From Yuukianura sp. NJ FZ-2021 (Eukaryota): a stretch of 64,000 nt of DNA. The notes beneath the pieces were generated by a model. It worked only from the letters and a program-made list of their open reading frames with translations, had not been told where the DNA came from and ran no database searches. Each line of letters starts with the position of its first letter. Within the stretch, counting starts at the first letter, position 1. Below are positions 16,155 through 59,755 of the stretch, one piece after another. A program made the position numbers and the translations under genes. The stretch is from assembly GCA_046563655.1 (NCBI GenBank), contig CM102287.1, positions 2,046,001 through 2,110,000 of the forward strand, given 5' to 3'.

Positions 16155-16188
16155 TCTGAATATAGAAGATTTAGGGTTAGAACTTACG

Positions 16189-25231: not shown

Positions 25232-25233
25232 TT

Positions 25234-25857: not shown

Positions 25858-26186
25858 TTAGCGTAAATGTATCAGTTGTATTTTAAGGAAAGGTGCGTAT
25901 ATTAATAGTTTACTAGGATTATTGTTTTTCAACTTTTAAATTATATAGTCTTACTCTTATTTTATTTATAATTTTTGTAATTATTTTTGGGCGGAGCATT
26001 GACTTGCGGCGCAATCTCTAATCTTCGTCTCTTTTTGGAAAAAACACCTGTCACAAAAGAACTTCCCTCCTTTAGCAGGAAAGGAATGGAGAAATGAGTA
26101 GCTTTTTTTGTCTCTTTGTTCCTTATGGGAAAAAAGCACATGACAGATTGCAGGTGTTTTTGCGGTTTCTTTTTTGATCTGAACAG

Positions 26187-30513: not shown

Positions 30514-30845
30514 TATAACAATTTCTTGCAAAGGCAAATTTTAACCCTGCCAAGCACTGTTTCCATATTATGAGTTTAAGCCAGATTTTCTACCCTCTAG
30601 TTAAGTCTTAATTTAACAACGTAATTAAACATACTGCCAGAAAATGACCGGATCAAAACTTCGTTGTTTAAATATATTTTGAGTGTAATCGAAACCAAAA
30701 TGTTTCCGGGAAACGACTGCACTTAGGGTGCATAAAGTGGCCGCCCATTTCCACGTTGTTAATATAACACTTTGAGTGCAATGTAGACTTAATGAGGCAT
30801 ACATAACCCCCCGGACAAAATGGAGCTTATGTTTTAGCGCAAAGG

Positions 30846-33800: not shown

Positions 33801-35909
33801 AATATCTCAAATCAAACGAATACTTTCAGAGTTCTCAAAAATGTTCTTAAAATTAGTCAAAAAATTAATAACATAACTTAAATAATTTTAACGTATTTTA
33901 ACAGACCATTAGACATTTGTTAAGCGATATTCCATTGCTCGTTTCCGCAGAGCCATCAAACACGACTCTCAGTTTCGTAGTGGAGCTGGTATCCTTTAGT
34001 ACAAAGTGATGTGGAAGATAATTAGTTACTCCCATCACCTCACCTGCCCCCAACTTGGGAACCTGGACCATGTGACCAAGTTCAACATAATTACTCATGA
34101 ACTTACGGTGCTCGACCTTGTGTTCAGGATGTTTTTCTAATCTCCGTTCAATTCCGTACAGCCGTCTCATGACTATTTCTCGGGATGAACCTAAATTTTG
34201 GCAATTCTATTTAAATGGCAACTTGACAACATACCTTCCGTCATCATTCCTGGAGTGATTGGCTACAAAATGTGCCTCGGCGGCTTTCTCTTCCACTGTC
34301 AGTGGCTGGTGGTGTGGGACATTCTCCAATTCCCAAAATTTCTGCAAAATCTGATTAGTTTCCACTAAAGCGTGGTTCACACTCACCACACGGCCTGGTT
34401 TGACTGGACCGGAAATTACCCAACCGAGTTCTGTTTCTTCCGCTACTGGATGATTAAGGTCTCCTTGAACCTTTTTACCAGTTTTGAGACGAGCCACGAA
34501 TTCTCCTCCAATCAAAATGTCAATGTCATTTGGTTTGTAGAATTCCGGATCGGCCAACTCCAATTCGTCCAAGAATGTCCAATCACTCGGATTAATTTGA
34601 AATGATGGCAGTGTACCTGTTACCTTTGGTAAAATCAAAGCATTAACAGTGAGCTTGTAATTTTTTGCCATTGACTCGATTTGGAATGACGTTTCCCCAA
34701 GTGCTTTTTGCACCATGGCTCCAGAAATCCCTGTGTGTTCCACGACGGTTCCGACCTAAAAATTTGACACATCGTTCTGAAATGAAATTAGATTCCGAAC
34801 CTTGATCGAGTAGCACTCGACAACTTTGAAGATCTCCAATGGAATTTTGCACATTGACAATGGCTGTGGCTAAAACAACCCGTGCGCCTGCGCAATGATT
34901 GGCTGCAGTGGAGGTTCCCTGTTGACCTTCTGACTTTGGTTGACTTTCTGACCTTGGTTGTGGTTTCTCACGATGGAGAAGTGTATTGCGCTTCTTCTTA
35001 CACTTGCCACAAGTGAAAGGAGCACGACAATTTTCTGCAGTATGCGCCGGCCTTAAACAATTCAAACAAAGTTTATTAGTTCGGACATATTTTTCTCTTT
35101 GATCTTGAGGCATGGCTCCAAATTCTGGACTCAATGGAAATCAGCTTTGAGCTAATTCTCTCAATGAACTTGTCACAAATGTTAATTTCCTTTGCTTGCT
35201 TACGAAGTTCCTCATCGTCTTCGCAATTCATGTAAATCTCATGCCTAATCAAACCCAACTTAGACTCAAAGTTCTCGATGGCTACAGCAGCCCTTGCGAC
35301 TGCAGTTGAGGAAGTCCCAAGTTCCTCTATTTTCATATGGAAATACTGGAGGTCAAGGCCAAATCCCTTTAGTGACCTTCCCAGTTTCTTCATCGTTTCT
35401 GTTTCTGTAGATGGAAGTACGCTAATGCTGGTCCCTGCTGCTCCAACGCCTGCAACAGCCTTAGGTGTCCCAGTATCATCGCTCTTGTCCGCCATCTTGG
35501 ATATACTTGCTGCCTTGACTCGTGACCTCGTTCCTGACGCCGTGGTTACGGTACTATGGGCACTCAAGTCCACTCACTTACAGTTCAATGTCCGAATCGG
35601 TTCGTCATCCTTTGTGTAACAGGCAGTGGGATTGATTATGACTCACTGTAACCGTCTTTCGGCACCATGAAGATCGTTGGATGGAATGCCAGATTCTGAA
35701 CACTGAACGTTTTCTAATTGATTCATTTATTTAATAATTGAAAACTCAAAACTTACATTAGATGACTACTTAACTGGTTGAAGTTGCTGAAAAGTGAATT
35801 GTGAGAATCTAAAGTTGCTGCCTCTGCAAAAGCTACTAGAAAACTCTCTTCTTGTGGTGTATCTTTTTTCTGTAGTAAAGGAGGGAGCGGTACCTTTTAC
35901 ATACACATA
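30846..35909 (-). mobile_element. BEL/Pao LTR retrotransposon, degenerate and truncated
   Basis: Partial 5' LTR 35668-35909 and PBS TGGTGCCGAAA (35667-35657, tRNA-Phe-like). Gag knuckles CLNC...H...C, protease LLDQGSE, KLRVVFDGS, RT YVDD, Pao RNase H (HGFSDSS, LPRLELCGA), integrase GVDYAGP and SDCGSNF. Frameshifts, an internal gag deletion and a missing 3' end. Confidence 0.93.
33527..33903. mobile_element. Probable solo LTR inserted in the BEL RT
   Basis: TGTAAAAT...ATTTTAACA ends and 5-bp TSD GACCA (33522-33526 and 33904-33908). Removal restores LNKCLMVGPTVQ in frame. Confidence 0.75.
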
Positions 35910-37136
35910 GGGTCACATACCTAGGGTCACACATTCAACACAAAAGTTGTTGGCCTCGATGAGATGAACAACTTTTGTAGAGGTCATTTTCCATGTTACC
36001 GGGTGTAAAACCGGTTGACCTTGACCTTTGACCCGGAAGGAGTTGACACCCGGGGGTCATATTCAATAGTTACCAAGCCCGGGTCATGACATGGTCACCG
36101 GTGAAAACCGGAATGAAATCGGACCAGTAGTTTCTGAGATAATTAATCCGGACAGACAGACAGACGGACAGACAAACCTCTTTTATCATAATAGCTTCGC
36201 TATTATAATAAACCGGTTGTAAACCGCCCATACTGATAATAGCGAAGCAATAGGCCCCCCGAAGGGGGTTTGTTCCCCCCACTTTCCCGCCTCCCCCCTC
36301 CGGGGGGAGTGGGGGTGTGTTTTTCCCAGTTTTCCGCCCCCCCCCGGGAAGTAGGGGTGTTTTCCCGCTTTTTTGCTCCGCACCCCAGGAGGCGTGGGGT
36401 GTGTTTCCCCCACTTTCCCGCCCCCCCCCCCTCCCGGAGTAGTGGGGGTGTGTTCCCCCCACTTTCCCGCCCCCCAGGTTGTTTTGACAGGTGAGACGTG
36501 ACAGCTGAGGCGTGACAGGTGACACCCGGCAAGTGACACTTGAGGGTGCCAGGTGACACGCGGCACGTGACAGGTGACACCCGGCAAGTGACAGGTGACA
36601 CCCGGTATGTAACAGGTGACACCCGGCAATTAGCAGGTGACAGGTGACACCCGGCAGGTGACAGGTGACACCCGGCAATTAACAGGTGACAGGTGACACC
36701 CGGCAAGTGACAGGTGACACCCAGTGGACACAGTGCATTAGTGTGTAATGTGTATATGTCAAGTGCGTAATAGATTTTTTGCTAAGCAGAGAATCAAGTC
36801 CCATGCCAATTGCCTTTCCAGTCTCACAAGCAGAGATTTTGTTACACACACTTGCATTACAAATGACCTTTGAAATCGATTTTGACCCGGAAGCAGGTGA
36901 CCTAGGGTCACACATTACACACAAAAGTTGTTCCCCTCGATGAGATGAACAACTTTTGTAGAGGTCATTTTCCATGTTACCTGGGATGAAACCGGTTGAA
37001 CTTGACCTTTGACCCGGAAGGAGTTGACACCCGGGGGTCATATTCAATAGTGACCTAGTCCGGGTCATGACAGGGTCACTGGTGAAAACCGGAATCAAAT
37101 CGGACCAGTAGTTTCTGAGATAATTAATCTGGACAG

Positions 37137-37186
<50 letters not shown>

Positions 37187-38048
37187 CACTTTTATCATAA
37201 TAGCTTCGCTATTATAATAAACCGGTTGTAAACCGCCCATACTGATAATAGCGAAGCAATAGGGCACCCCGAAGGGGGTTTGTTCCCCCCACTTTCCCGC
37301 CCCCCCCCGGGGGAGTGGGGGTGTGTTTCCCCACTTTCCCGCCCCCCCCCGGGGGAGTGGGGTGTGTTCCCCCCACTTTTACGCCCCCCCGGGGAGTGGG
37401 GGTGTTCCCTCCACTTTTTTGTGAAGTGCCCCGGTTTTCCCCCTTTAGGTTAGGGTCAATTGCCCCTTGAGGTTAGGGAGTGGCCTTAGGTTAGTGTAGT
37501 TAGGCTAGTGGTTAGTCTTAGCGTTAGGTTAGTGAGATTGGTTTAGCGTTTTAGCGCGAGTTTTGAGTAGAGTTAGCGTGGTAGAGAGGAGAGAGACTGG
37601 TTGTGCCAGTCAGTCGGTATTTGGTGGTTGTCTAAGACTGTGTATCTTTTGTACAAATAAATATATTTTATATTTATTTGTCTTCGTGTCTTTCGTGTTG
37701 TTCTTTGGTGTCCCTTATGGTCCTCAGTTTTGTGGCATGAGTCCGGCAGTGCTCGGATCGTAGTCTGGAGGCCATCTTTGGCAGTTTTACGTAGCACGAG
37801 GTGCTACACATGGCGACCGTTTTGTGAGTGTTACTGCTGAGGTCAAAGGTCACAATGGTGTAACAACACATGGTGAGTGTTAAAAACTTTTATTCTGTGT
37901 CAAGTGGGATCAAGACATCATGTAATTGTTCGTGAGTGGACGTTACCCTTGGTCAAAGGGAATTGGCCTTAATTCCGAAGTGGATCATCTGTAAATTTTG
38001 TACATAGAAGGAGGAAGTTGCCGAAACAACTTCCACTGGATCCACTCC

Positions 38049-39581
38049 ATGTCAGACAGAAAACCAGTAAGTAAAGAATTAAAAAATCTTGAAATTGATC
38101 CTACAGTGACATTTAAGCTACCAGAGCTTAGTCCAACATCAGATTCGGAAGGACCGTTTCTCCGAAGTCAAGAAAGTAAAATTCCGACTCCAAGTACATC
38201 CCCAAAAATCATTGTCAGTGCTCCAGGTTCATCAGTAACCATGGCAACATACACCAAGGAGGAAGTGGACAGATTAGTGGCCGAGGCCGTGGCCCATGCC
38301 GTGCGCGGCGTGGAGCAGAGATTAGTTCAGCGGGTGACCGGTGGAGTCGCTGCGGTGACTCCAGCCCCTGCGGAGGCAGATCCAGTTGGTCAGACCCAAG
38401 CATTGATAACAGCATTGAAGAGTATCAAGTTCACATCATTATCATCTAAATTGCCTGTGCCGAGTTTTGATCCAAAGAAGATGTCAGCGGCAGGCTACCT
38501 TAGTGAAGTAGAGCGTTACTTCACAGCTCAAGGACATGAGCAAAGGCAGTTTCTTTATCTTGTGAAGACGGTCTTGCCTGTTGAATCTCAACCATGGCTA
38601 GACCACATCCTAGTGACAGTGACGGACTGGGATTCATTCAAAGATGCTTTTATCAACAGATATGATAATTGGATGGACGTGGCAGAACGAACGAGGCTTC
38701 TGCACACAAGAAGACAACAGTTCAACGAGTCTGTTGAATTTTATTTGTATGTTGTGGTTCGGTGCTCCAGATTAATTTATCCACATGAGTCAGTGGCTGA
38801 TGCAGTGTTACGTGCAAAATTAGGTTTGAATCCGAGGATTCGCACAGCCCTAGGAACTCAACAGTTCGACACAGTGGAATCACTTTTTGATGCATGTAGA
38901 ATTGCTCATGCTAATCTTACAGCAGAAGATAGAATCACAAAAAACAAATTCGGATTACCTCCAATTGTCAAGGTCGACTCAAAGTCAGAGTCAGTCAAGA
39001 AAGATGATAATTCCACTAATTCAAATGCTGGAAGTTCTGCTGGAACTTCCAATGGAAATAATTGGTTTCGTGGGAAGGAAGCTAAGAATAATGGCTTCCG
39101 TGGAAACTGGAAAGGCAAGGGAAATGGCTACAAGAATCATTCCAGTGATCAGTCCCCGACTAGTGGAAGTAATGGAAGTCCGAACAGTGGACATTCCTCA
39201 TCTCAACCTAATGACCAGTCACACGGTCAAAGTTCAAAATCCAATTATGACAAGAATTCAGTGCATCCTCAAAATGAATCATCTGCACGTGGGAAGGGCG
39301 GTTACCGTGGTAATCGTGGTTCTTCTAATGACAACGACCGAGGTGGTGGTCAAGGCAGAGGTCAAGGCCAGACCTCTAGGCAAGATTTAAGTGATGTTCA
39401 GTGCTTCAAGTGTAATGGTTTTGGGCATCGTAAGTTTCAGTGTCCATCAGGTGTTGGTTTGGCCTTAGGGTCATTTCATGAGGAGGTCCCTCAAGGACCT
39501 CCAGTTCCAAAAAAGAAGAAGGAGCCACCTGAAAAAAATGAAGCGTCAACTTCTAATGAGAAGTTAAACGCGCAGTGGTGA
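38049..39581 (+). CDS. gag: gag, family 2
   Basis: Capsid-like WDSFKDAFINRY and QQFNESVEFY; knuckle CFKCNGFGHRKFQC. First ATG is at 38049. Confidence 0.93.
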   Translation: MSDRKPVSKELKNLEIDPTVTFKLPELSPTSDSEGPFLRSQESKIPTPSTSPKIIVSAPGSSVTMATYTKEEVDRLVAEAVAHAVRGVEQRLVQRVTGGVAAVTPAPAEADPVGQTQALITALKSIKFTSLSSKLPVPSFDPKKMSAAGYLSEVERYFTAQGHEQRQFLYLVKTVLPVESQPWLDHILVTVTDWDSFKDAFINRYDNWMDVAERTRLLHTRRQQFNESVEFYLYVVVRCSRLIYPHESVADAVLRAKLGLNPRIRTALGTQQFDTVESLFDACRIAHANLTAEDRITKNKFGLPPIVKVDSKSESVKKDDNSTNSNAGSSAGTSNGNNWFRGKEAKNNGFRGNWKGKGNGYKNHSSDQSPTSGSNGSPNSGHSSSQPNDQSHGQSSKSNYDKNSVHPQNESSARGKGGYRGNRGSSNDNDRGGGQGRGQGQTSRQDLSDVQCFKCNGFGHRKFQCPSGVGLALGSFHEEVPQGPPVPKKKKEPPEKNEASTSNEKLNAQW

Positions 39582-39633
39582 ATGAGAAGTCGTCCATCAT
39601 TCACCCTACCTTAGTTCAAGTTTCGGACGATTT
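39563..39633 (+). promoter_or_regulatory. -1 ribosomal frameshift signal (G_TTA_AAC plus H-type pseudoknot)
   Basis: Heptamer at 39563-39569 and a 7-nt spacer. Stem 1 GGTGAATGA/TCATTCACC (39577-39585/39597-39605); stem 2 AAGTCGTCC/GGACGATTT (39587-39595/39625-39633). Pol is in the -1 frame. Confidence 0.8.
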
Positions 39634-42600
39634 AATTCCTTTTGTGACTGTGGCGAATGAAGATTCGAAATGTTTGGCTATTTTCGACACGGGATGTTCG
39701 CAGTCACTCATTGATGTACAGTTATGTGAAAAGTTACAGTCAGTTGTAGTTCCATTAAAAAATAAGTCTACAACTATGATGAATAGTCAGAAGCTGCGTC
39801 TCATTGGCTTCTGTTTTGTGTATATAAAAATTGGTGGTCGAACTTTGAAGTCAAAGTTCTATGTGGCGGAAGGTTTGCCAGTTAAGTGTGTGTTGGGTTC
39901 TGATTTTTGTTTTCAGAATGACATTGTAATTAGATTGAGAAGTAAAGAGTTTTGGTTTGGTGACAATGGAAGTCAGAAATTCAAATTGACTTCCACTACA
40001 GAAACAACCGGGACTGCGTTGTTTTCAGTGGCTTTACCAGTAAGCCATAATGAAGATAGTGAAGTGAGAGTGAGAGTTCAGCGTGTCCTAGAGAAATTTC
40101 CAACGGTCGTCCGGAGTGATGGGAAGTTGGGAAGGACGGACCTGACTCATCATGTGATAGAAGATGAAGGGTGTCCCCCGGCAAGGAACCCTTACAGAAG
40201 GTCACCAGAAATGCAGAAGATCATCAATGATCAAATTCAAGAAATGTTGAAGGAAGGTCTAATCAGACCTTCAAGGTCACCGTATGCAGCTCCAGTTGTG
40301 GTGGTACCAAAGAAAGACGGCAGTAAGAGACTTTGTGTGGACTATACATTGCTCAATCAGCAAACGAAGACGAATGCTGCGCCAATGGAGAGTGCTCATT
40401 CTATTTTACACACAATTCCTGCTGGTTATTGGTGCACAGTGATTGATCTTGCGAAAGGATATTGGCAAGTCAAGTTGCATCCGGACAGTGTTGAAAAGTC
40501 AGCGTTCGTGACTCAAGATGGCCATTACGAGTTCCTAGTGATGCCATTCGGATTAAAGAATAGTCCAAAGACGTGTCAGCAGTTGATGCGGAAAGTCATC
40601 CAAGGATTCTCCAAGTTTGCAAAGTGCTACATGGACGATATCATTTTGTTCAGTAAGACTCTGGATGAACATTTAGTGCATTTAGAAAAAGTGCTGAGTA
40701 GGTTGAAGATGGCAGGACTCACCATTAGTCCTCAAAAGTTACAGTGTTGTCGGCGTGAGGTTGATGTGTTGGGCCATCGTTTGACAGAACATGGTCTACA
40801 AAAGTGTCCTAAAAAAGTGAGTGCCATAGTGGATTTCCCTACTCCGAAGAACGTCAAGGAAGTTCAAAGTTTCCATGGAATGACTCAGTGGTATGCTCCA
40901 TTTATTGAACATTTTGCTGCAAAGGCAGAGCCACTGTACCGACTTCTAAGAAAAAACCAACCGTGGATTTGGGGAGAAGAACAGGAGAAGTCGTTCCAGT
41001 CACTAAAAGAGTCAATGTGCAACGATGTGATGTTACATGCAGTTGACTACGACCATCCGATTTTGTTGAAGTGCGATGCGTCGAATTATGGGTTGGGTGC
41101 GGCCTTAACTCAAGTCATCAATGGTGTGGAGAGACCAGTGATGTTTATCAGTAAAACACTCCGAAAATCAGAAATTCGGTACCACATTTACGAAAAAGAG
41201 TTGTTCGCGATTATTTGGGCCTACCGGAAGCTCAGAGAATACATTGAAGGTCAGAAGTTCACAATTATAACTGACAACAAAGCCTTATCATTCCTCAACA
41301 AGATGAAGGAGCGGAAAGCAAAATTGGCTTTGTGGGATACGGAGAACAAGTCATGGGGTGTCGAGATCAAGCATCGCTCCGGGAAGGATAATGTGGAGGC
41401 GGACGCGCTTTCACGTGCTCCAGTTCCTGTCGATGAAGCAGATCTCGATTTTGAAGATGATTCCCCGGCGTACATGTACTCGCCAACGGCCGTGGCGTTA
41501 CTGTCGTTTGATACTCCTACGATCCAGAGGATGAAAGACGAACAACGAAGAGATCCTGATTTAGTGAAAGTGATCAGTGACATTGAAAGTGGTAAAAGTG
41601 TAAAAAGTTACGTCCTAAAGAATGGCGTACTAGGCAGAGAAGTCAAGAGTTTTGACTTCTATTCCGATAATGGTTTCTGCGGAGACATTATCGAGGGGCG
41701 ATGTGCGGAAACGAGGCCTCAATCTTCCGACATCACTCTAGAGGATGTTGACGAAAAAGAGTTCAGCAGTTCCTCAGCTCGTAAAAGTGAGCTCATTCAG
41801 GTGCCAGTGGTACCAAGGGTCATGATACCCGAAATAATGAAGTTACTACATGATGTGCCAGAAGCAGCGCATCTTGGCATCAAAGCCACAAAAGTAAAAA
41901 TCAAACGAAGATTTTTCTGGAAAAACATGAATAAGGACATCAGTGATTATGTAAAGTCATGTCCAGTTTGTCAAGCAGTCAAGTCTTGCAACTACAAGCC
42001 CTTTGGATTATTGCAAGCAGTGTCTCCTCCTACTAAAGTGTTTGAGAAAATCTACATTGATTTTATGGGTCCACTGCCAAGATCTTCAAATCAAAATGAG
42101 TATTTGTTCGTCGTGGAAGACGATTTATCCAAGTGGGTGGAGTTATTCCCGATGCGGAAAGCAAAATCGAAAAAAGTTGTGGAAGTGTTAGTGAATGAAA
42201 TTTTTTGTCGTTATGGTACTCCGAAAACAGTTGTCTCGGATAATGGAAGCCAATTTCTGTCAAAAGTGATGATTAAGATGGCTAAGGACTGGAAGATCAA
42301 CCATGTTCCCGTAAGTCCGTACCATGCGCAAGCGAACACTGTGGAAAGAGTTAATCGAAACCTTAAGCCTATGCTCCAGGCTTATGTCGACAAGAATCAT
42401 AGATCATGGGACCAGCATCTCCAGAAGTTCGCATTGGCTCTTAGAACCTCTGTACATTCGACTACTAAAGTGACTCCTGCGTTACTAAATTTAGGTCGTG
42501 AGATTCCGCTGCCCCTTGATAGGAACTTACAAAGTGATGGTGACAGGGAAGTCCGGAAGTTAGGACTTCTGCCTGCTCAATTAGAAGAAATAATTCAGTT

Positions 42601-43021
42601 CGTGAGGAAGAACATGGAAGAAGCACATGAGCATAATATCAAGCATTATGACTCTAAACATCAAGAAGGAAACTTTCAAGTTGGTGATTTAGTGCTTATT
42701 AAAAACCATTCGTTGTCAGACAAGAAGAAAGGCATTGCTAAAAAATTAGATCCTCGATTTATTGGTCCATACCAAATTAGTGAAGTGTTAACCCCAGTGA
42801 CCTTCAAACTTGTGACATTGCCTGAAAAAACTAATTTTGGAAAGCGTCATGTGTCGGAGTTGAAGCCTTATACTGTTCGCACGTCGCAGTTTGTGGTTCC
42901 GAAAATTCCCACTAAGTCTGAGGATTGGTCGGACTCGGAGGAGGAAGCGAACTCTGGAGGAAGAACTTTGAGGAAAAAAGTTCGGCTCAACTACCGCACG
43001 CTCGCTGGATACAGAAGTTAA
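39563..43021 (+). CDS. pol: pol (PR-RT-RNase H-IN), intact
   Basis: IFDTGCS, YMDD, LKCDAS, HDVPEAAHLG...CPVC, IDFMGP/SDNGSQF/VERVNR and GPY in one uninterrupted frame. Confidence 0.97.
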   Translation, partial: VKRAVVNEKSSIIHPTLVQVSDDLIPFVTVANEDSKCLAIFDTGCSQSLIDVQLCEKLQSVVVPLKNKSTTMMNSQKLRLIGFCFVYIKIGGRTLKSKFYVAEGLPVKCVLGSDFCFQNDIVIRLRSKEFWFGDNGSQKFKLTSTTETTGTALFSVALPVSHNEDSEVRVRVQRVLEKFPTVVRSDGKLGRTDLTHHVIEDEGCPPARNPYRRSPEMQKIINDQIQEMLKEGLIRPSRSPYAAPVVVVPKKDGSKRLCVDYTLLNQQTKTNAAPMESAHSILHTIPAGYWCTVIDLAKGYWQVKLHPDSVEKSAFVTQDGHYEFLVMPFGLKNSPKTCQQLMRKVIQGFSKFAKCYMDDIILFSKTLDEHLVHLEKVLSRLKMAGLTISPQKLQCCRREVDVLGHRLTEHGLQKCPKKVSAIVDFPTPKNVKEVQSFHGMTQWYAPFIEHFAAKAEPLYRLLRKNQPWIWGEEQEKSFQSLKESMCNDVMLHAVDYDHPILLKCDASNYGLGAALTQVINGVERPVMFISKTLRKSEIRYHIYEKELFAIIWAYRKLREYIEGQKFTIITDNKALSFLNKMKERKAKLALWDTENKSWGVEIKHRSGKDNVEADALSRAPVPVDEADLDFEDDSPAYMYSPTAVALLSFDTPTIQRMKDEQRRDPDLVKVISDIESGKSVKSYVLKNGVLGREVKSFDFYSDNGFCGDIIEGRCAETRPQSSDITLEDVDEKEFSSSSARKSELIQVPVVPRVMIPEIMKLLHDVPEAAHLGIKATKVKIKRRFFWKNMNKDISDYVKSCPVCQAVKSCNYKPFGLLQAVSPPTKVFEKIYIDFMGPLPRSSNQNEYLFVVEDDLSKWVELFPMRKAKSKKVVEVLVNEIFCRYGTPKTVVSDNGSQFLSKVMIKMAKDWKINHVPVSPYHAQANTVERVNRNLKPMLQAYVDKNHRSWDQHLQKFALALRTSVHSTTKVTPALLNLGREIPLPLDRNLQSDGDREVRKLGLLPAQLEEIIQFVRKNMEEAHEHNIKHYDSKHQEGNFQVGDLVLIKNHSLSDKKKGIAKKLDPRFIGPYQISEVLTPVTFKLVTLPEKTNFGKRHVSELKPYTVRTSQFVVPKIPTKSEDWSDSEEEANSGGRTLRKKVRLNYRTLAGYRS

Positions 43022-43081
43022 CACGTGCTCTGTTCAGTTGTTCTTTTTCAGTGTTTTGGAAGTCATTTTGTGACTTCCATC

Positions 43082-45100
43082 ATGCCATCATCAATTGTTA
43101 GTGATGTGGTTCCAGTCAGTGGAAAGAAAAAGAAAACTCAAGATTACTGGAAGAAGCGACGTGAATGTGAGTTAAAATACGGTACTGCTGATAAGAGTCC
43201 GCAGGAACGTAAGGACATGTTTTTATTTGAAGTGGCTCAACGGAATTCATGGGATGAATTCCCATACAAATATCATCCTCATGTGTCGTTAGTGAAAGTT
43301 TTTCGGTTGTGGGACGCAGTGATGGAGCCTTCAAAACAACCGATTATGGATGAGAGACTGCAAGTGCCAATTCGCCTTATCGACACGGAAGCAAAGTTCA
43401 TGGTAATGTTGGGTTGCTTAAGAGCAGAACGAGTTATCAGTGTGGACATGGAGTTTAGTCATGACAAGGGATATCGTGATCGTTATGTTTGTGTACTGCA
43501 GATTTCGACCCAAGAATCGGATTACATCATTGATCCATTCGTAGTGCCAATCCAGATGCAAATGCTGAGGGAAATCTTCTCCAATGGCAACTACATCAAG
43601 ATTCTGCATGGGAGTGTTAATGACCTACTCATGTTCCAGCTCCATTATCATATCTTCTTCGTGGGTGTAATTGACACTCAAATTGTTGATACTGTCTTTG
43701 GTGGTCATCAGGGACGTGGACTGGACAAAGTGATTCGTGACTACTTGCCTGGTGTGAAAGCGAGCAAGGATTGTCAACTTGCTGACTTCAGGATCCGTCC
43801 AATTGAAAACATGCATCCAGACATGATCCAGTATGCAAGGAGTGACACACATTTGTTATTACGTGTGTTTGAAGTCATGAAGCAACGTCATGACTTCAAA
43901 AGTGAAAGTGTTAAGTGGAATGAGGTTGTCAAGTTGTGTAATAATTTGTGCTTAAAAGTGTACAAATTTAAGCAGCATCCAAGTGCCCGTGAGATTTTGG
44001 CTAAAGTGGACATGCCCACTTTAAGTGTAAGTGTGATGGAGCAAGTTGTCGGCTGGAGAGACATGGTTGCCAGGGAGATGGACGTTCAACCAAAGGAGGC
44101 CATTGCTGACGTTACTTGTGCACAATTGGTTAAGGAAGGGCCAAAAGATAAGTTAAGTGTGGAGAAAGTGATTGGCAAAAATGTTTTGTCATCTGGTCAT
44201 TTGGATATGCTAATTCCCATTTTTGTGTCTACTAAAAGTGTGGGTGGAGTCACAGAAGTTGCTGCTACAACTTCTACAGTGCAAAAAGTGACTCTGGATT
44301 TATCGGTGTTTGATTGGGATACACCAATCACTAAAGAAGATGTACAAAGAATGGAACAGGAAGTTGCTCAATCAACTTCCAAAAGTGCTAATGTTCCTGC
44401 TACAGTGCAAAAAGTGACTTTAGATTTGTCGGCTTTCGACTGGGATACGCCAGTCACAAGAGAAGATATTGCCAGGATGGAGGCGGAAGTCGCACAAACG
44501 ACTTCCCAAAATGTAAATATTAGTGCTCCAGTGCCTGTTGACATTGATGGTTTATCGGATGTTTCCGATCTGTCAGACGTTTCTGACGAACCATTAGCGG
44601 ACCAAGTTGCTGATTCGGAAGTGGAAGTGGAGTGCAACGTCCAGGAATTTAGTGACAGCGATGACGGTGAGATGCTGATCGTCACCGTTTCTGAAGATGA
44701 TTTGCGTGAGGTGGTAGGATTACCACACGAAGAAAATCCGAATGTGGTTTACGAACCACAAGTACCAGAGGAAGATCCCCAGGAAGTGATCGATGCGATG
44801 GAGGAGGAGCCCCGGGAAGTAGTAGCTGCAGCCGAACGAAGAGATCGGCGAGATCGGCGAAATTGTCCCCACTGTGGCAGCGAGCGGCATACCGATGTCC
44901 TGTTTTGCCGATTTCGTGATCTGCCAGAAGCAGAGGCCAGAAGACGTCATCGACGCCGGCGTCTCAATATGAATCGACGCCGTAATCTTCGTGTTCGTGC
45001 TGAGGAGGAGCGGTTGCGACGAGAAGCGGAACGTGCAGCCCGAGAAGCAGCGGATGTTGGAGATCGTGTCCCGAGGAATGCCCCGGAACCCGCTCTTTAG
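43082..45100 (+). CDS. Rrp6/EXOSC10-like DEDDy 3'-5' exonuclease plus HRDC with long acidic/basic tail, 672 aa
   Basis: ExoI ISVDME (D 43445, E 43451), CVLQIST..DYIID, ExoII KILHGSVND (D 43622), QLADFRIRP, ExoIII YARSDTHLL (Y 43832, D 43844), HRDC-like WRDMVAREMD. Intronless; the stop abuts the PPT. Confidence 0.92.
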   Translation: MPSSIVSDVVPVSGKKKKTQDYWKKRRECELKYGTADKSPQERKDMFLFEVAQRNSWDEFPYKYHPHVSLVKVFRLWDAVMEPSKQPIMDERLQVPIRLIDTEAKFMVMLGCLRAERVISVDMEFSHDKGYRDRYVCVLQISTQESDYIIDPFVVPIQMQMLREIFSNGNYIKILHGSVNDLLMFQLHYHIFFVGVIDTQIVDTVFGGHQGRGLDKVIRDYLPGVKASKDCQLADFRIRPIENMHPDMIQYARSDTHLLLRVFEVMKQRHDFKSESVKWNEVVKLCNNLCLKVYKFKQHPSAREILAKVDMPTLSVSVMEQVVGWRDMVAREMDVQPKEAIADVTCAQLVKEGPKDKLSVEKVIGKNVLSSGHLDMLIPIFVSTKSVGGVTEVAATTSTVQKVTLDLSVFDWDTPITKEDVQRMEQEVAQSTSKSANVPATVQKVTLDLSAFDWDTPVTREDIARMEAEVAQTTSQNVNISAPVPVDIDGLSDVSDLSDVSDEPLADQVADSEVEVECNVQEFSDSDDGEMLIVTVSEDDLREVVGLPHEENPNVVYEPQVPEEDPQEVIDAMEEEPREVVAAAERRDRRDRRNCPHCGSERHTDVLFCRFRDLPEAEARRRHRRRRLNMNRRRNLRVRAEEERLRREAERAAREAADVGDRVPRNAPEPAL

Positions 45101-46305
45101 AAGGAGGAAGGTGAAGTGCCCCGGTTTTCCCCCTTTAGGTTAGGGTCGTTTGCCCCTTGAGGTTAGGGTGTGGCCTTAGGTTAGTGTAGTTAGGCTAGTG
45201 GTTAGTCTTAGCGTTAGTGAGATTGGTTTAGCGTTTTAGCGCGAGTTTTGAGTAGAGTTAGCGTGGTAGAGAGGAGAGAGACTGGTTGTGCCAGTCAGTC
45301 GGTTTTTGGTGTTTGTCTCAGCATGAGCTGATGATCTTGTATTTATTGTACAAATAAATATATTTTATATTTATTTGTCTTCGTGTCTTTTGTGTTGTTC
45401 TTTGGTGTCCCTTATGGTCCTCAGTTTCGTTGCATGAGTCCGGCAGTGCTCGGATCGTAGTCTGGAGGCCATTTTTGGCAGTTTACGTAGCACGAGGTGC
45501 TACATTTGCTCCGCACCCCAGGGAGCGCGGGGGTGTGTTCCCCGGGGGAGAGGGGGTGGGTGCCCCGGGGGAGAGGGGGTGGGTGCCCCGGGGGAGAGGA
45601 GGTGGGTGTCCCGGGGGAGGGGATTGGTAATTATAAGATACATGTTAATTAATATAAGATTATAAGATTAATTGAATAGACAGCCGCACTCCAGATTTCT
45701 TGCGTGTGGCGCAATAGACAGCCACACTCCAGATTTCTTGCGTGTGGCGCAATAGACAGCCACACTCCAGATTTCTTGCGTGTGGCGCAAATATGAGCCA
45801 CAGTCAAGATTTTTTGCGTGTGGCGCAAATATGAGCCACAGTCAAGCCACGTGACAGGTGACACCCGGCAAGTGACATGACAGGTGACACCCGGTGGACA
45901 CAGTGCATGAGTGTGTAAAGTGTTATGTCAACTGCGTAATAGATTTTTTGCTAAGCAGAGAAGCAACTCCCATGCCAATTGCCTTTCCAGTCCCTCAAGC
46001 AGAGTTTTGTTTACCCACACTTGCATTACAAATGACCTTTGAAATCGATTTTGACCCGGAAGCAGGTGACCTAGGGTCACACATTACACACAAAAGTTGT
46101 TCCCCTCGATGAGATGAACAACTTTTGTAGAGGTCATTTTCCATGTTACCTGGGATGAAACCGGTTGACCTTGACCTTTGACCCGGAAGGAGTTGACACA
46201 CGGGGGTCATATTCAATAGTGACCTAGTGCGGGTCATGACATGGTCACTGGTGAAAACCGGAATCAAATCGGACCAGTAGTTTCCGAGATAATTAGTCTG
46301 GACAG

Positions 46306-46336
<31 letters not shown>

Positions 46337-48219
46337 AACCACTTTTATCATAATAGCTTCGCTTTTATAATAAACAAAATTCCGAGTTAAACAAGCTTGA
46401 CCGGATGGATACATTTATCCCCACCACAACCAAAAGCAGTACGTCCACCTAGCGGCAATACAGTAACCTCTGAATTCAAGCTGGCAACGTTTTTTCCTTT
46501 TTGATTTGGTAAATCCTGTTATATTTTAGGTTAGCGTTAGGTTTGGTAAAGCACGCAGTACTGATTACGTCTGTAGGTTTGACTTATTGAGTTTCGCTGT
46601 GTTGATTAAATCTGCCCTGGGTGGGTACAATGGAGCAATGGTACAACGTTGCCAGCTCGAATTTGCTAGTCCCACTTCAGCCGCTAGGGGGACTCGGTGT
46701 ACGTCTGGTGGGTACAGATTTGTCCCCACCAAGTGGGGACAAATGTATCCATCCGGTTAGGGATGTTCACGTTCAGTTTCGTTTCGTTTCCACGAGGATA
46801 CGGAAACGGAAACGAAACGGGACGTCAGGAAACGAAACGTCGTCTCCCCCTGGAAACGGAAACGGATACGGAAACGAAACGCCAGGAAACGGAAACGGAT
46901 ACGGAAACGGCTAATTTTTTTCTGCATGTCAAAAAATAAGCTAAAATTAGGTGGGCTAAATGTAAAACTCTATTGTACAATGGCACTTTCCACTATTACA
47001 TCAGTGAAGTTGTCAAAAACTGACCCAAAATCGGTTCCATCCAGCTTTATATGGTAATGAAGTGCGTTATTGCGGCAGGTATAACATTCACTGTCGCTTA
47101 TCTCAAAGCAAATCTGATCAGAAAGGTCAGATGTGTGACTATGTTTTATTTTTGAGCGCAAATCAATCTTGTGTCTGTGAATTTTTAGCTTTGAAAATTT
47201 AAATTACCCTCCAAAAAGAAAATAACCGTTTCCGTTTCGTTTCCAAGAAGGAAACGGAAACGGAAACGAAACGGTGTGAGGGATGACAGACGAGGATATA
47301 CCGATCCTCGCCTGCCCTCAAATAAATGAACAACCGATGACAACGATTCGTGTGCTACGATTTATTTATAAATCGTAGCCGTAATCTCTAAATGTACATG
47401 AGCCCGATCTAAACAAAACAATGGGCCTTAAGGGCCTAAACCGAAGGTACTGGGGAGAAGGAGCGGGACAAGCCACTACCTGGCTATGACCACTACCTGG
47501 TCATGGCCACTCCTGGCCAAGGGCCACTAACTGGCCCGAAGGATGCGTAGAGTGTCCATTGACCTTACGTGACCCAACTGACCGTGACGAAGGCGGTGGT
47601 GACAAGGCGGCGTGGCGGAGAGGAGTTGCTGCTGCTGCATCCAGAGCCAGAATTGAAGTGAGTGGCTGATGCAACTTCTGCTGCTGCTCCTCCAATTTGA
47701 ATTGTGGGAAGCGGGAAGCGGAGAAACACTTATGGGCAATGCCCTAACTTAATATTTTTAACTATTTTAACTTTTTAACTATTTTATACTTTTAATTAAC
47801 TAACATTTGAGGATCATATCCTCACATCACCCCCTCCCCGCTTTGTAGCTTTGCTACAAAGAGAGGAAGACAAGAAAAACAAAGAAATTTTGAAATGGAA
47901 ACAAATGAATCAGAAAACAAAACTTATGCTAATATGTACACGCTAATTAATTGGAAAAATTTTGGCAATTGTCAAAAAATGAATTTGGCTTAAAATTACT
48001 GTGCTGAAGGCACTTAATACGGGACTCTAGTCCCAACTAAATCTACCACTAGACTAACTGAGCACAAAAATCGTTGCTATCGTTTGCTTGCTGCGTAACT
48101 TGGTTACTCTGCTTGGGGTGACATTGAAAAAGGCTCCTGCGGACGGAGCTGTAAAGTTAGCGTTTGAACAAAGACAATTTTGGAAAAGCGAAGTCTTTCT
48201 AAAACCAACAAAAGAAAAA

Positions 48220-51200
48220 TTAGTTGCCTGTCACACGACTGCGCAAGTTGTAACTACTTTGGACTGGAACCGGCTTAGTTTTTACTGCTTTTACGTACGT
48301 CAAAGGGTCAGGAATAGGTTCGGAAGGGCGGGAAAAATACCTTTTCAAATTGACTATGTTATGGCGACCTGCGTTTTCCTCAGCATCAAACAACTTTAGG
48401 CCATAAACTAAGGGCGTAACCTTTTCTGAAATGACGTAAGGGCCTTCCCACTTGAACGAAAACTTTTTCATAATGCCCTTAGCTTTGTCAGACTGTGGAT
48501 GCGTGCGCAGGAGAACTAAATCGCCAATTTCAAATGCGTCTGAGCGACGTTTCGCGTTGTAGTATTTGGCTTGAGACGCTTGTGCTTTTTCTAAGTGTTC
48601 CCTGGCTAAACGATAGACTTTTGAAAGACGCTCGATTAATTTTAGCTGGTACTCTGTCCATTCTGCAAATTCATCGCTCTGGGAGTCATCTAAAACCAAA
48701 TCAAAAGGAGTCGAGAGCTCGCTTCCAAAGTTTAACATGGAGGGACTGAAACCGGTCGAATCGCTGATCGCCGTACGCAAAGCCATTGCGACTTCTGGCA
48801 GATTTTCATCCCATTTTGAATGTTTGCGAGCGACGTAGGCGCGAAGAATGGCTATCACGTTCCGGTTGACACGCTCCGTAATGTTCGCCTGTGGATGATA
48901 AGTAGAAATGAACTTTAGTTTAACTTGCCAAGTTCTACAAAGTTTCTTAAATAATTCCGAAGTGAATTGAGAACCATTGTCACTTAATAACGCTCTAGGT
49001 CTACCGAAACGACAAAATACTTCCTGTTCGACTTTTTGGACAATCTGAGGAGCTGTAGCCTCCCTGAGAGGAAAAATTTCAACCCATTTGGTAAAATGGT
49101 CTGTAACGACTAACAAAAAGGTATTTTGACGCTGCGTCTTTGTAAGGGGGCCTATCAGATCAAGTGCCAACATATCCCAAGGACCTCTAGTCTGAACGCT
49201 CTGTAACTCACCTACTGGTTTCGTAGTGGGATTTTTAGTCTTTTGACAAATGTCGCAGGACGTAACGAACTTGTAAATGTCCTCGTGCATACCAAACCAG
49301 AAGACTCGTCGCAACAAACGATAAAGGGTTTTTCGAAAGCCCATGTGACCTGACTCTGGACGATCATGAAAATAACTCAAAACTTGAGAACGTAAAGAAG
49401 ATGGAATAAAGGGAAGCTTTCCGGAATATTTCCCTAGTCGGTAAAGAATTCCGTCGTCGACTACGAAATCCTTTCCTGTGTCCGTGAGCAACGCTTGGAC
49501 TTCTAAATCTTTACTTTGCTCTTCTTTGAGCTGTTCGAATGAAATTTCGCGCGTCAGTGAAAGAAAAATGGCGGGGGAAGAACGATTAAGTGGAAAATTT
49601 AACTTTTCACGGTGATCTTCAGCATCCTCACTTTCTCCTACTGGGGCTCTTGAAAGGGCATCAGCTACAACGTTAAGTTTCCCTGGACAATGAGTAATAA
49701 TGGGCTGGAAATCCTGAATTCTAAGGGCCCAACGGGTAAACTTACTGTTGACATCTTTCATCTTGTCTAACCAAACGAGAGCTCTGTTGTCTGTCTCGAG
49801 GCGAAATCTCTGACCGTCAATGTAATGTTCAAACTTCTTAAGGGCGAACAAAATACCTACACACTCGATTTCACTGGAACCGTAGTTCTTTTCTGCGTTA
49901 TTTAGAGAGCGACTGGCAAAAGCAATTGGTCTCTCAAAACCATTAATTTCCTGGGCAAGGACTGCAGATACACCAACCTTGGACGCGTCCGTCCGGATGA
50001 TGAACTCTTTAGAAAAATCGGGAAAAGCCAAAACTAACTTATCGGAACAAATCGCTGCTCTGAGCTTTAAAAATGCAGACTCCTGAGCGTCTGACCAATC
50101 AAAGGGGACATCCTTATGTAACAAACGATTGAGGGGCTCGCTAACCTCAGAAAACTTGTCGACAAACTGTCGATACCAGGAGCAAAGTCCTAAAAACTGA
50201 CGAACTTGTTTAGGCGTCGTTGGCCTGGGGAACTCAGAAACTGCCGAAACTTTCTCCGGATCACGCTCAATTCCGTTTGGAGAAATGATATAGCCTAAGT
50301 ACTTTAATGTAGTTTTGCCAAACTCATATTTATCCTTATTTACAGTAAGACCTGCAGATTGTAAACGTTCGAAAACGTACTTTAAGTGCTCTAAGTGCTC
50401 TGTCCAAGAGTTTGAGTATACAATGATATCGTCAATGTATCCATCAGCAAAGCGACCTCTCGCTGTGCCCAGAACTTTATTTACAAGCCTTTGAAAAAGA
50501 GAAGGGGCAGATTTTAGCCCAAAGGGCATTCGAGTGAATTGAAATTTCCCTTCATGACAAATAAAAGCAGTATATTTGGCACTATTTTCATCTAAAGCTA
50601 CTTGCCAATAGCCTTTCTTAAGATCTATGACGGAAAGAAACTTAGCTTGTCCTAAGTTGTGGAAAAGATAATCTAACCTAGGAATTGGGAATGGATCATG
50701 AGGGAGCCGCGCGTTGACTTTTCTCAAGTCCAGGGTAAATCTCCAAGACTCACCTTTGTCTTTTGTATGCATATATACAGGGAAGCCCATTCAGATTCGG
50801 AGGGAACAATGACTCCTAACTTGAGCATTTCAGAAATGTTATCAGCAATCAATTGTCTTTTAAAGGGACTAACGGGGTAGGGCTTAGAAGCAATTGGGGG
50901 TCCAGGAGACGGTGTCAACTCACACTTAACCCAATCAGTCAGGCCTAACTGCGAAGAGAAAAGTGAGGGAAAACTATCGGTCAAGGTCTTGAGGTCTCGA
51001 GATTGAGCATCGCTGAGTCCCAAAAGTGCACACAGGTACTCGCGATTGTAGAAATCGTATTCCAAACGACCTTTAGTTTTTGTCCCGTTAATGGAAAATG
51101 TACCGTCATGAAAGTCAGGAACCAAGTGATAGTTCCGAATGAAGTCAAGTCCGAGAATTAATGGAAATGGGGGAGACTGGAGTACGTGTACTCTCTGAAC

Positions 51201-51457
51201 ATACTCGTCCGTATAGATTTTGAACTTTAAATTGGCTGAACCTAAAGTACTGATCGTACTAGAATCTCCAATCGTTAATGTTAGTTTACAGTCTGGGGTA
51301 AATTGTAATCCCAGTTGCTTAGCTAAAGAAAGAGAAATGTGGGAGTAGGTAGAAAGGGAGTCTAGATGAGCTGAACAAACCAAATTTCGAATTTTAACTC
51401 TAATTGTGGGAGCTGCTTTCGAGAAATCTAAATTCGGAAGGATAGGGGGCTCCCGTC
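48220..51457 (-). pseudogene. pol: pol, family 3, one frameshift at ~50785
   Basis: Protease-like HLDSLS, RT YIDD, RTDAS, HDRPESGHMG...CDIC, LDLIGP, SDNGSQF and GPY. The PR and RT ORFs overlap out of frame at SESEWAS. Confidence 0.93.
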
Positions 51458-52519
51458 CTACCTTCCGTACAAGTTTGGAGGATCCGGAACGAACTGGTTA
51501 GCCCTCTCGGCCCTGTCGAGATTCTGAGGTAACTTTGGTGTCATAGGCACAAAGGAAGGGACTTCAGCTACTGAATCTGGAGTGTACTGCTGAAGGTTAG
51601 TCTCTACCGAACGTTGCTGGGCACTACTCTGCTTACTCTCATTCCCTGGAAGTGGACGACTGTTACTGGCAATGCTGGACTGAACTGAATCTGAGCTAGC
51701 TAGAGGGCGCTGTACATTGGAACTAGAAGGAGCTGAATCGTTAGAAGCCCTAGGCTGATATCGTGCAGATGCTTTCTCTCTAAGCCTTTGATTGTGTTCA
51801 GAAAAATCATCCGATGCTTTAGCACGGAGTAATGGCTTGTTCTCGAAGCGTCTAGTCCTATTCAAATCACCTATGATTGCTTTACCATGAGAAATAAGCT
51901 CCGCTATCCCTGTAGCTGGGGAAGATCTAAGCAAAAGAGAGATTTCTGGGATACAGGAATTAAGAATTCGGTCTCTAATTGTCTTTGCGGGTGTCTGAGG
52001 ATCAATACGTTTGTAGGAATTTGAAATATCCCATGCGAAAGTTTCAAATGGTTCAGAAAAGAATTGTTTTCGAGAAAATAATTCAGAAAGAAGTTTGTCT
52101 TTTGACTGATCAACACCCTCATAGTTTTGAAAAACCACTTTAAAATCATTCCAATTACTGATACTATCCTTTGTATCCAACCACCATCGGAAAATGTCGG
52201 AATCTTTGTGGAACATTCGACTAATCAAAACCAATTTTCCTTCTTCAGATAAATTTTTCAGAGCAAAATAATCTTCAGCGTCTTTAAAGAAAGAGGAAAT
52301 AGGCATACGATGTGAATATTTGGGAATTGGAATCACTGCTGCGTGTTCGACTAATAAAACTTGGGGCGCGCTAGGTGGGGTGATAGCTAGTACGGGCGCG
52401 GCGACTTCGGGCGCGGCGGTTAGCTGTTGTGTTTGCAAGGCGGCTAATTGTGCTTGTAATGTTTGTAATTGTTGACGTAGGTCAGCAATTACAACGTCTT
52501 TGGAATCGGTGGGGTCCAT
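51458..52519 (-). CDS. gag: gag-like ORF, family 3 (no zinc knuckle seen)
   Basis: Lies between the PBS and pol. N-terminal coiled coil and capsid-like WNDFKVVF...RKQFFSEPFETFA. Confidence 0.8.
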   Translation of the reverse strand: MDPTDSKDVVIADLRQQLQTLQAQLAALQTQQLTAAPEVAAPVLAITPPSAPQVLLVEHAAVIPIPKYSHRMPISSFFKDAEDYFALKNLSEEGKLVLISRMFHKDSDIFRWWLDTKDSISNWNDFKVVFQNYEGVDQSKDKLLSELFSRKQFFSEPFETFAWDISNSYKRIDPQTPAKTIRDRILNSCIPEISLLLRSSPATGIAELISHGKAIIGDLNRTRRFENKPLLRAKASDDFSEHNQRLREKASARYQPRASNDSAPSSSNVQRPLASSDSVQSSIASNSRPLPGNESKQSSAQQRSVETNLQQYTPDSVAEVPSFVPMTPKLPQNLDRAERANQFVPDPPNLYGR

Positions 52520-59696: not shown

Positions 59697-59755
59697 GATG
59701 GAAGTCAGGAAATGACTTCCAAAACACTGAAAAGAACAACTGAACAGAGCACGTT

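Follow-up and report, generated by a model that had tools for sequence, protein, structure and literature searches.

Retrotransposons rarely carry accessory genes apart from env, and those that occur are poorly understood; a locus in Yuukianura sp. NJ FZ-2021 raises the question of whether a gene of this kind, which encodes a nuclease resembling a host enzyme, belongs to the element that carries it or was recently taken from the host. We addressed this question in a 64,000-nucleotide (nt) stretch of GenBank assembly GCA_046563655.1 (contig CM102287.1, positions 2,046,001 to 2,110,000 of the forward strand; hereafter the window, whose own numbering is used throughout). The gene is the third open reading frame (ORF3, 43082–45100) of a Ty3/gypsy long terminal repeat (LTR) element at 37422–45504, and all features of this element lie on the plus strand. 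An original prediction, made without database searches, had read ORF3 as a retro-captured host nuclease related to Rrp6/EXOSC10 and standing in the env position. We are highly confident that ORF3 is a selected, element-borne gene of the Rrp6 type; the role proposed below for its product is more tentative.

ORF3 is a continuous frame of 672 codons, from the ATG at 43082 to a TAG at 45098–45100, and encodes an Rrp6-like nuclease with EXO and HRDC domains, followed by a C-terminal knuckle and a basic tail. Residues 98–268 (43373–43885) form a DEDDy 3′–5′ exonuclease domain, matched by Pfam DNA_pol_A_exo1 (PF01612) at E = 3.9e-26 and 92.3 bits against a cutoff of 23.6; a search with this profile had been proposed in the original prediction as a check. 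All five DEDDy residues are in place, as stated there (D122, E124, D181, Y251, and D255), and the QIST, LADFRIRP, and YARSDTH motifs occur in the translation within LQISTQESDY, QLADFRIRP, and YARSDTH. The HRDC-like segment was recovered in part: phmmer, AlphaFold2, and Foldseek supported a helical domain at residues about 300–387 (43979–44242), whereas the Pfam HRDC profile stayed below threshold at residues 318–363 (E = 0.013, 15.9 bits, cutoff 23.8). Against the Protein Data Bank (PDB), phmmer aligned residues 94–362 with the EXO and HRDC domains of yeast Rrp6 (E = 2e-27), and further matches included Trypanosoma Rrp6 (2.5e-26), human EXOSC10 (3.8e-21), and RNase D (1.2e-5); these alignments span ORF3 from residues about 54–94 to about 362, that is, EXO plus HRDC.

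The modeled fold agreed with these assignments. An AlphaFold2 model built on 20 relatives had a predicted local distance difference test (pLDDT) score mostly above 90 over residues 12–385, with a low-confidence C terminus save for one helix. The first twelve Foldseek matches listed were all Rrp6/EXOSC10, with template modeling (TM) scores of 0.69 to 0.72 to the catalytic cores 4nlb, 4nlc, and 3saf over 333–336 columns (4nlb, TM 0.71 and root-mean-square deviation 4.0; 3saf, TM 0.69) and with alignments to EXO-plus-HRDC cores reaching 354, at only 20–25% identity. Nibbler (7jw2, 4.7e-11) and EXD1 (5fiq, 3.2e-7) came far behind, as did trypanosome RNase D and NrnC; RNase D (1yt3) was matched at 9.7e-15. 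Only 97 residues precede the EXO domain, and PMC2NT (PF08066) was not found at E ≤ 0.01 in the whole ORF or at E ≤ 10 in residues 1–97. No alignment to Rrp6/EXOSC10 chains extended past residue 362, which is weak evidence because the C-terminal exosome-associating region is poorly conserved. Judged by sequence and modeled fold, ORF3 is the catalytic core (EXO and HRDC) of an Rrp6-family 3′–5′ exonuclease with its active-site residues intact, an identity in line with the original prediction.

This nuclease gene lies inside a complete Ty3/gypsy element. The 5′ LTR (37422–37808, 387 nt) and 3′ LTR (45112–45504, 393 nt), each beginning with TG and ending with CA, are 92.8% identical in blastn when gaps are counted; 15 substitutions in 381 aligned columns give a Kimura two-parameter (K2P) distance of 0.04, and three indels account for 18 gap columns. 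They are flanked by a 4-base target site duplication (TSD), TTTG, read directly at 37418–37421 and 45505–45508. Two nt past the 5′ LTR stands TGGCGACCG (37811–37819), a putative primer-binding site. gag runs from its first ATG at 38049 to 39581 and has a CCHC knuckle near its C terminus (Pfam zf-CCHC, E = 9.1e-4, slightly under the cutoff). pol (39560–43021, stop TAA 43019–43021) encodes protease (PR), reverse transcriptase (RT), RNase H (RH), integrase (IN), and an SH3 domain, with Pfam matches to RVT_1 (9.1e-32), RT_RNaseH_2 (9.7e-32), rve (8.5e-14), and Integrase_H2C2 (5.3e-20). Its reading frame is −1 to that of gag, which it overlaps by 22 nt, and gag-pol frameshifting is likely; a −1 frameshift at the A-run 39533–39539 was ruled out, as the pol frame has stops until 39559. 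The polypurine tract AGAAGGAGGAAGG (45099–45111) overlaps the ORF3 stop and abuts the 3′ LTR. The original prediction was therefore right that ORF3 ends at this tract and that it is the third ORF of a gypsy provirus with intact gag and pol. That ORF3 is a host gene merely beside an element was ruled out by its position within the LTR pair and TSD and by the existence of a second copy. The insertion site is a GC-rich tandem array with a period of about 1 kb (35774–37420 and 45509–46420), whose flanks at 36683–37167 and 45848–46336 are 95% identical and which also contains 21/28-nt GGTGACA-type microrepeats (36524–36743) and G/C-run repeats.

The second copy of this family, found by blastn, lies on the minus strand and runs from its LTR (57270–57682) to the window end (57270–64000). 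Between this LTR and the 5′ LTR of copy 1, identity is 83%. Copy 2 has an ORF3 frame (57697–59676, minus strand) that is open over 659 codons and shares 86.5% amino acid identity with that of copy 1 over 666 positions (tblastn). Its ATG is out of frame because of a one-base difference in length after codon 6, and seven residues are missing, the last Cys of the knuckle among them. Its pol differs from that of copy 1 by a 1-nt insertion, a 198-nt insertion, and one in-frame stop.

We used the two copies to estimate synonymous (dS) and nonsynonymous (dN) divergence by the Nei-Gojobori method, with a Fisher test on synonymous versus nonsynonymous changes. The stretches compared were 41847–45504 with 57270–60930 and, for pol, 39575–43018 with 59677–64000. 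ORF3 as a whole gave a dS of 0.353 and a dN/dS of 0.197 (Fisher p = 7e-30), and these values varied along its length: dS 0.79 and dN/dS 0.107 at the N terminus, 0.62 and 0.09 in the EXO domain (Fisher p = 3.5e-19), about 0.25 and 0.30–0.31 in the HRDC domain and repeat, and 0.15 and 0.43 at the C terminus. In the matching pol pair, dS was 0.075 and dN/dS 0.09 along the full length. On these rates, purifying selection has acted strongly on the nuclease part of ORF3 throughout a long divergence. Because dS is much higher in ORF3 than in pol, the ORF3/LTR modules of the two copies would have split earlier than their pols. This points to a 3′ module derived from another sub-lineage, and thus to an element that is a mosaic, or recombinant, between sub-lineages.

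Beyond the catalytic core, the C-terminal 280 residues, which include an acidic stretch, carry features of their own. A 126-nt (42-amino acid) unit containing an F-D-W-D-T-P motif is tandemly duplicated at 44271–44522 (repeat search, 75% identity), and copy 2 has both units as well. In ORF3 relatives, an acidic-W-acidic motif is found again at the equivalent place, between HRDC and knuckle; it reads FDWDTP here (residues about 415–520) and DWES, NWEP, QWEV, or DWEG in the relatives, and is duplicated in the window element. We take this motif to be reminiscent of the W-acidic motifs of motor adaptors. The CCHC-like knuckle CPHCGSERHTDVLFC (44864–44908; CX2CX4HX5C), identified by regular expression and alignment, was not matched by Pfam zf-CCHC. 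It is followed by a predicted arginine-rich helix of 47 residues (616–662; 44927–45067), the block for which pLDDT was 85–94, and 24 of the last 82 residues of ORF3 are arginine. A transmembrane-like segment was sought and not found (highest 19-residue Kyte-Doolittle mean, 1.3), and no env family of Pfam matched ORF3; an env-like function was ruled out by the absence of a transmembrane segment, and the fold is that of a nuclease.

ORF3 belongs to a diverse family. An exhaustive profile search returned 4109 proteins at E ≤ 1e-3, 13 of them at E ≤ 1e-30, and a word-index search gave a single match for the whole ORF3, a fungal Rrp6, and no match for residues 50–370. The top profile matches align from their own N termini, with EXO beginning near residue 75–100, and a pre-EXO motif, FG..RPQ..RN..FP..HP..W, is common to the 20-row alignment A1. 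These relatives are only 19–32% identical to ORF3 and usually carry a canonical CX2CX4HX4C knuckle and then a basic stretch near the C terminus. Among the 24 element-type rows of the tree described below, a CCHC-type knuckle follows EXO-HRDC in 18; five of the six rows without one are 433 amino acids or shorter, and the sixth is copy 2 of the window, with its deletion at that place. All five DEDDy residues are present in 21 of the 24 (the exceptions are L003, P0014, and P0021, and P0021 alone shows DEEYD). Among rows with a long N terminus, such a knuckle was seen in P0006 only. PMC2NT was found in none of 22 element-type proteins versus 20 of 30 cellular-type representatives, Pfam HRDC was significant in 9 of the 22, and the EXO scores of those scanned were 53–113 bits for element-type proteins versus 149–182 bits for cellular representatives.

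The family is also linked to gypsy pol genes at other loci. A metagenome scan with a 3-sequence alignment yielded seven loci, four of which (L001–L004) carry an element-type ORF. L002 and L003 have gag, pol (PR-RT-RH-IN), and EXO in this order, and L004 has an integrase core and SH3 domain and then EXO; in L001, two upstream ORFs of at least 150 amino acids were scanned and had no Pfam match. L006 and L007 matched only weakly and in part (28% identity over 73 residues) and were left out. L005 (metagenome contig, 2024–4063) is a cellular-type EXO and HRDC gene with a weak N-terminal R3H match; it adjoins an HSA-domain gene and an LRR gene and forms a very long branch in the tree. Viral contigs scanned with the same alignment gave 99 pattern matches, none of which was confirmed. 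The named element-type members are springtail proteins, from Orchesella dallaii (P0006, P0061, and P0275) and Allacma fusca (P0092). The N-terminal 135–137 residues of P0006 align with residues 974–1104 of the window pol (33% identity, E = 3e-22), so the nuclease stands directly behind a related pol in this springtail copy too. Of 2717 matches to the window pol, the 6th and 7th are the pols of L002 and L003 (46% and 44% identity), and an Orchesella pol ranks 9th (49% identity over half of the query), which argues that pol and ORF3 travel together in a coherent clade. The nearest named relatives of both pol and ORF3 are from springtails, and annotation pipelines label the nuclease proteins as host genes, under 'ribonuclease D' or '3'-5' exonuclease domain-containing protein'. 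By these comparisons, ORF3 is a long-kept accessory gene of a Ty3/gypsy lineage and a member of an old, diverse element-borne family.

We placed ORF3 among cellular nucleases with a quick IQ-TREE analysis of 91 proteins trimmed to the EXO-HRDC region, with support given by SH-aLRT only. The rows comprised 25 sequences pre-labeled as element-type and 64 of the 128 remaining representatives (every second one), together with P0002, L005, and an E. coli RNase D outgroup. P0005, P0010, and P0022, which are identical to locus ORFs, were excluded, as were P0023, P0153, and P0154. One group (SH-aLRT 87) held 21 of the 25 labeled rows and lay outside a 66-row cellular clade (SH-aLRT 93). Three long-branched rows, P0018, P0059, and P0092, sat without a resolved position at the base of the tree, and P0013 (Aphelenchoides) fell inside the cellular clade next to nematode EXOSC10 (Trichinella, Panagrolaimus) and was dropped as an element-type member. 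With P0013 removed, a tree in which the 24 rows were held together lay 46.7 log-likelihood units above the free quick search (approximately unbiased [AU] test, p = 0.985). Within the limits of this tree, the element-borne proteins are one old group outside the sampled cellular Rrp6 proteins, and ORF3 of the window is not a recent copy of host EXOSC10. A tree had likewise been proposed in the original prediction; the part run here, with cellular Rrp6/EXOSC10 and the E. coli outgroup, placed ORF3 outside the cellular clade. Retro-capture of a host nuclease in this genome, as the wording there suggests, is not supported, in view of this placement, the age and diversity of the element-borne group, its linkage to related pols elsewhere, and the missing exosome-docking PMC2NT domain.

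How ORF3 may be expressed is suggested by motifs on either side of gag-pol. The leader (37824–37937) contains three GTGAGT hexamers, at 37824, 37873, and 37932, that are candidate splice donors; they are three of the element's five plus-strand copies and lie within about 110 nt, and the plus strand of the whole window has 16. The hexamer at 37873 directly follows an ATG (37870–37872). A polypyrimidine tract with CAG (43040–43051), a candidate acceptor, stands 30 nt before the ORF3 ATG and is conserved in copy 2, save that the T-run is one base shorter there; AG-ending sites also occur 2–30 nt upstream of the ORF3 ATG in L002, L003, and L004. The leader ATG joined to 43052 would remain in frame with ORF3. 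The distance from the pol stop to ORF3 is 60–167 nt across elements; it is 136–167 nt in L002–L004, where pol and ORF3 are in different frames. Third ORFs of LTR elements usually use a spliced subgenomic mRNA (PMC5408684; this and the other papers are cited from portions of their text), and the putative donors and acceptor would fit such a transcript.

A second gypsy family in the window bears on whether ORF3 simply takes the place of env. This gypsy/errantivirus-like element (11836–25857, minus strand) is 14 kb long, with LTRs of 622 and 624 nt that are 98.2% identical and bounded by TG and CA, and with a TSD of TTAG. On the minus strand its order is a matrixin-like ORF upstream of gag (21444–22688; Peptidase_M10, 4.3e-17), gag, a pol divided between frames close to the integrase core, an env resembling Baculo_F (13881–16265; E = 2e-4, which does not reach the cutoff), and finally P0276, an ORF of 416 amino acids (12516–13766). 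P0276 encodes a degenerate Rrp6-like EXO domain: PF01612 matched it slightly below the cutoff (E = 1e-4), its best PDB match was T. brucei Rrp6 (8.1e-5), and hhalign aligned it to the element-borne family with a probability of 94.7% (E = 6.3e-8). The D and E of ExoI and the D of ExoII are replaced in those alignments. Because this degenerate ORF follows a Baculo_F-like env, the nuclease ORF would be an accessory gene at the 3′ end rather than simply a stand-in for env. The env position claimed for ORF3 thus holds insofar as it is a third ORF, and does not carry over to this second family, where the related ORF stands behind env.

The window contains further mobile-element remnants on the minus strand, at 9568–10335, 25962–27536, 30834–33527, and 48220–52582. 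They comprise ORFs of the PIF1-like and Helitron_like_N types, an element of the Pao/BEL type with Peptidase_A17 (2.2e-49) and DUF5641, and a third gypsy pol, which has RT, RH, and IN. This third pol is without an ORF3 match, in that a tblastn search of the window at E ≤ 1e-3 gave just the two ORF3 copies.

The best overall explanation, to which we give not quite an even chance, is that ORF3 is a long-kept gypsy accessory gene encoding an exosome-independent exonuclease that probably works outside the capsid. It would be made from a spliced subgenomic mRNA, as env is, by joining a leader GTGAGT donor to the acceptor at 43051/43052. Its sequence and model suggest an active 3′–5′ exonuclease, independent of the exosome and with RNA 3′ ends as its most likely substrate, like Rrp6 and RNase D. 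The acidic W repeat, the CCHC-type knuckle, and the arginine-rich helix could bind nucleic acid and direct the protein to the nucleus. Working outside the capsid, it would then probably regulate transcripts of the host or the element, or serve as a counter-defense factor acting on them, for example by removing antisense or small-RNA precursor transcripts or by competing with host RNA surveillance. We put forward this extra-capsid, RNA-directed role tentatively, as somewhat below an even chance. It is favored because separate expression from Gag-Pol, if the splice model holds, would probably leave the protein working outside the capsid, and because enzymes needed inside capsids normally belong to Pol. 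It is favored as well by the arginine-rich helix, which resembles a nuclear or RNA-binding signal, by the ORF3 module, which appears to evolve and recombine like a host-interface gene, and by the version in the second gypsy family, which is without the ExoI and ExoII acidic residues, so that a binding role may suffice.

Two rival readings tie the nuclease more closely to Gag-Pol. The main rival, in our judgment less likely than not, is a helper of replication inside the particle, whose knuckle and basic tail would bind element RNA and which, once packaged, would trim RNA or cDNA 3′ ends during reverse transcription; its substrates could be poly(A) ends, non-templated ends, remnants left by RNase H, or the primer, or it could serve as a proofreader in trans. 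Processing of the 3′ ends of element RNAs was proposed by Rodriguez et al. for rotifer ORFs (PMC5408684). A CCHC knuckle followed by a basic stretch, as found in most of the relatives, does resemble the nucleocapsid knuckle, and the DNA_pol_A_exo1 family, by its Pfam name, includes proofreading domains; however, the nearest relatives of ORF3 by sequence and fold are RNA-trimming Rrp6 cores and not polymerase proofreaders, and the knuckle is degenerate in ORF3 and partly lost in copy 2. Capsid enzymes are also normally encoded within Pol, whereas this nuclease is a separate ORF past the pol stop, in other frames in L002–L004. Less probable again is that ORF3 is translated by read-through of the TAA at 43019–43021, as a C-terminal domain of Pol instead of a gene in its own right. 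The pol and ORF3 of copy 1 do share one frame, with this single TAA and 20 sense codons before the ATG, and the Orchesella gene model P0006 fuses a pol C terminus to the EXO ORF; but the frame relation is broken in copy 2 by the shorter T-run between pol stop and ATG, and it does not hold in L002, L003, and L004, with their differing frames and longer gaps. The best 150 representatives of the 4109 profile matches are all 1246 residues or shorter, so no full-length pol-EXO fusion is among them, and the two longest, P0019 and P0048, are without an RT or integrase domain.

Other readings concern where the gene came from and whether it matters to the element. We regard recent retro-capture of the host's own EXOSC10 mRNA by one element family as very improbable. 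ORF3 is intronless and, among solved proteins, closest to Rrp6/EXOSC10, as such a capture would have it, but its identity to Rrp6 cores is only 20–25%, PMC2NT and an Rrp6-type C terminus are absent, relatives with equivalent special N and C termini stand behind gypsy pols at other loci and in a springtail genome, and the whole group lies outside the cellular clade. Equally hard to credit is a decaying passenger without current function for the element: the out-of-frame ATG of copy 2 and the diverged LTRs of copy 1 are what decay would leave, whereas an EXO dN/dS of 0.09 over a dS of 0.62, frames still open over 672 and 659 codons, and an architecture kept among proteins so distant from ORF3 speak for function. 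A bolder extension of the favored explanation, which we consider improbable as a whole, would make the family an ancient retroelement-specific branch of Rrp6, a sister group of cellular Rrp6 that did not arise from the gene of any living host, with its own targeting tail of knuckle and arginine-rich helix. Such proteins would serve gypsy elements of soil arthropods as antagonists or hijackers of nuclear RNA surveillance or the piRNA pathway, dead versions such as that at 12516–13766 would be decoys, and the module would be swapped between lineages by recombination. Module swapping, if true, would explain why the synonymous divergence of ORF3 in the copy pair is 5–10 times that of pol.

Several observations weigh against the explanation of ORF3 as a long-kept, separately expressed nuclease gene. 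In the tree, a single very long outgroup carries the rooting and several branches are long, and the choice of the 24 rows was settled once the first tree had moved P0013 to the nematode EXOSC10 group. Three of the 24 relatives and the ORF of the other gypsy family have lost one or more DEDDy residues, so catalysis may not be the sole function. The knuckle appears unconstrained in the host lineage, with its off-consensus spacing, the missing zf-CCHC match, its partial loss in copy 2, and a C-terminal dN/dS of 0.43. The proposed splicing is built from consensus-like motifs, AG acceptors are common, and the window shows no enrichment of the 8-mer GGTGAGTG (3 found versus 2.0 expected); for copy 1, read-through of the TAA is possible. 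Finally, the copy 1 element may not be currently active, given the K2P distance and three indels between its LTRs and the broken state of copy 2.

We were interested in how this gene compares with known systems. Rrp6/EXOSC10 is the distributive 3′–5′ exoribonuclease of the nuclear RNA exosome. ORF3 has in common with it a DEDDy EXO domain followed by HRDC, as well as QIST, ADWRxRP-like, and YARxDTH motifs, and differs in that it is without PMC2NT, the binding site of Rrp47/C1D, in that its acidic repeat, CCHC-like knuckle, and arginine-rich helix after HRDC have no similarity there, and in that it is encoded in an LTR element and falls outside the cellular clade. Bacterial RNase D is like ORF3 in combining EXO and HRDC without PMC2NT and matches it weakly in sequence and also in fold; however, it is far more distant than Rrp6 and has neither knuckle nor tail. 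RNase D has two HRDC domains. Nibbler/Mut-7 and EXD1, which are DEDD-fold proteins of small-RNA pathways, have the EXO fold in common with ORF3, but their matches are confined to that domain and are much weaker than those of Rrp6. EXD1 is described as a catalytically inactive derivative (PMC5408684), which parallels the degenerate EXO ORF of the second gypsy family.

Mobile elements that encode DEDDy domains have been described before. The transposases of Dada DNA transposons contain one (Kojima and Jurka 2013, PMC3706591); there it sits inside a DDE transposase and is not a separate retroelement ORF. A review lists a DnaQ-like exonuclease among the accessory domains of LTR elements, citing the rotifer work, in the portion cited here (PMC6338049), and in the text available of a 2026 survey of env-carrying gypsy elements, including those of Collembola, the word 'nuclease' is absent (PMC13524379). 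Within the full-text literature searched, the scope of which left aside supplements and subscription journals, no Rrp6- or HRDC-type ORF in a gypsy element was described.

The closest precedent, to which the original prediction had rightly pointed, is in bdelloid rotifers, where the LTR retrotransposons Juno and Vesta as well as Athena/Terminon elements carry a DEDDy ORF3 (Rodriguez, Kenefick, and Arkhipova 2017, PMC5408684). As in our element, an extra DEDDy ORF follows pol in LTR elements and is without coiled-coil or transmembrane env features. In the portion of that paper cited, the rotifer ORFs are called RNase D-like, were placed via HHpred, have DEDD changed to DEED, stand nearer to one another than to the cellular proteins RNase D, mut-7, WRN, or Rrp6, and show no clear departure from neutrality, and the term HRDC has no occurrences. 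In comparison, which is by description only, the window ORF3 is a direct Pfam and phmmer match with an intact DEDD (D181), an HRDC domain, and a knuckle and basic tail; it is under purifying selection, and the named hosts of its family are springtails. The protein is concrete and amenable to expression and assay, and it bears on how retroelements handle host RNA decay, small-RNA silencing, or the processing of their own RNA. Set apart from the rotifer case by these descriptions, what is new here is an Rrp6-type enzyme with HRDC, an intact DEDD, and a knuckle and basic tail, a recognizable RNA-surveillance nuclease under selection and common to a gypsy clade in springtail genomes and metagenome contigs. 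It carries the one case published so far into another animal phylum and adds an Rrp6-type form of the nuclease.

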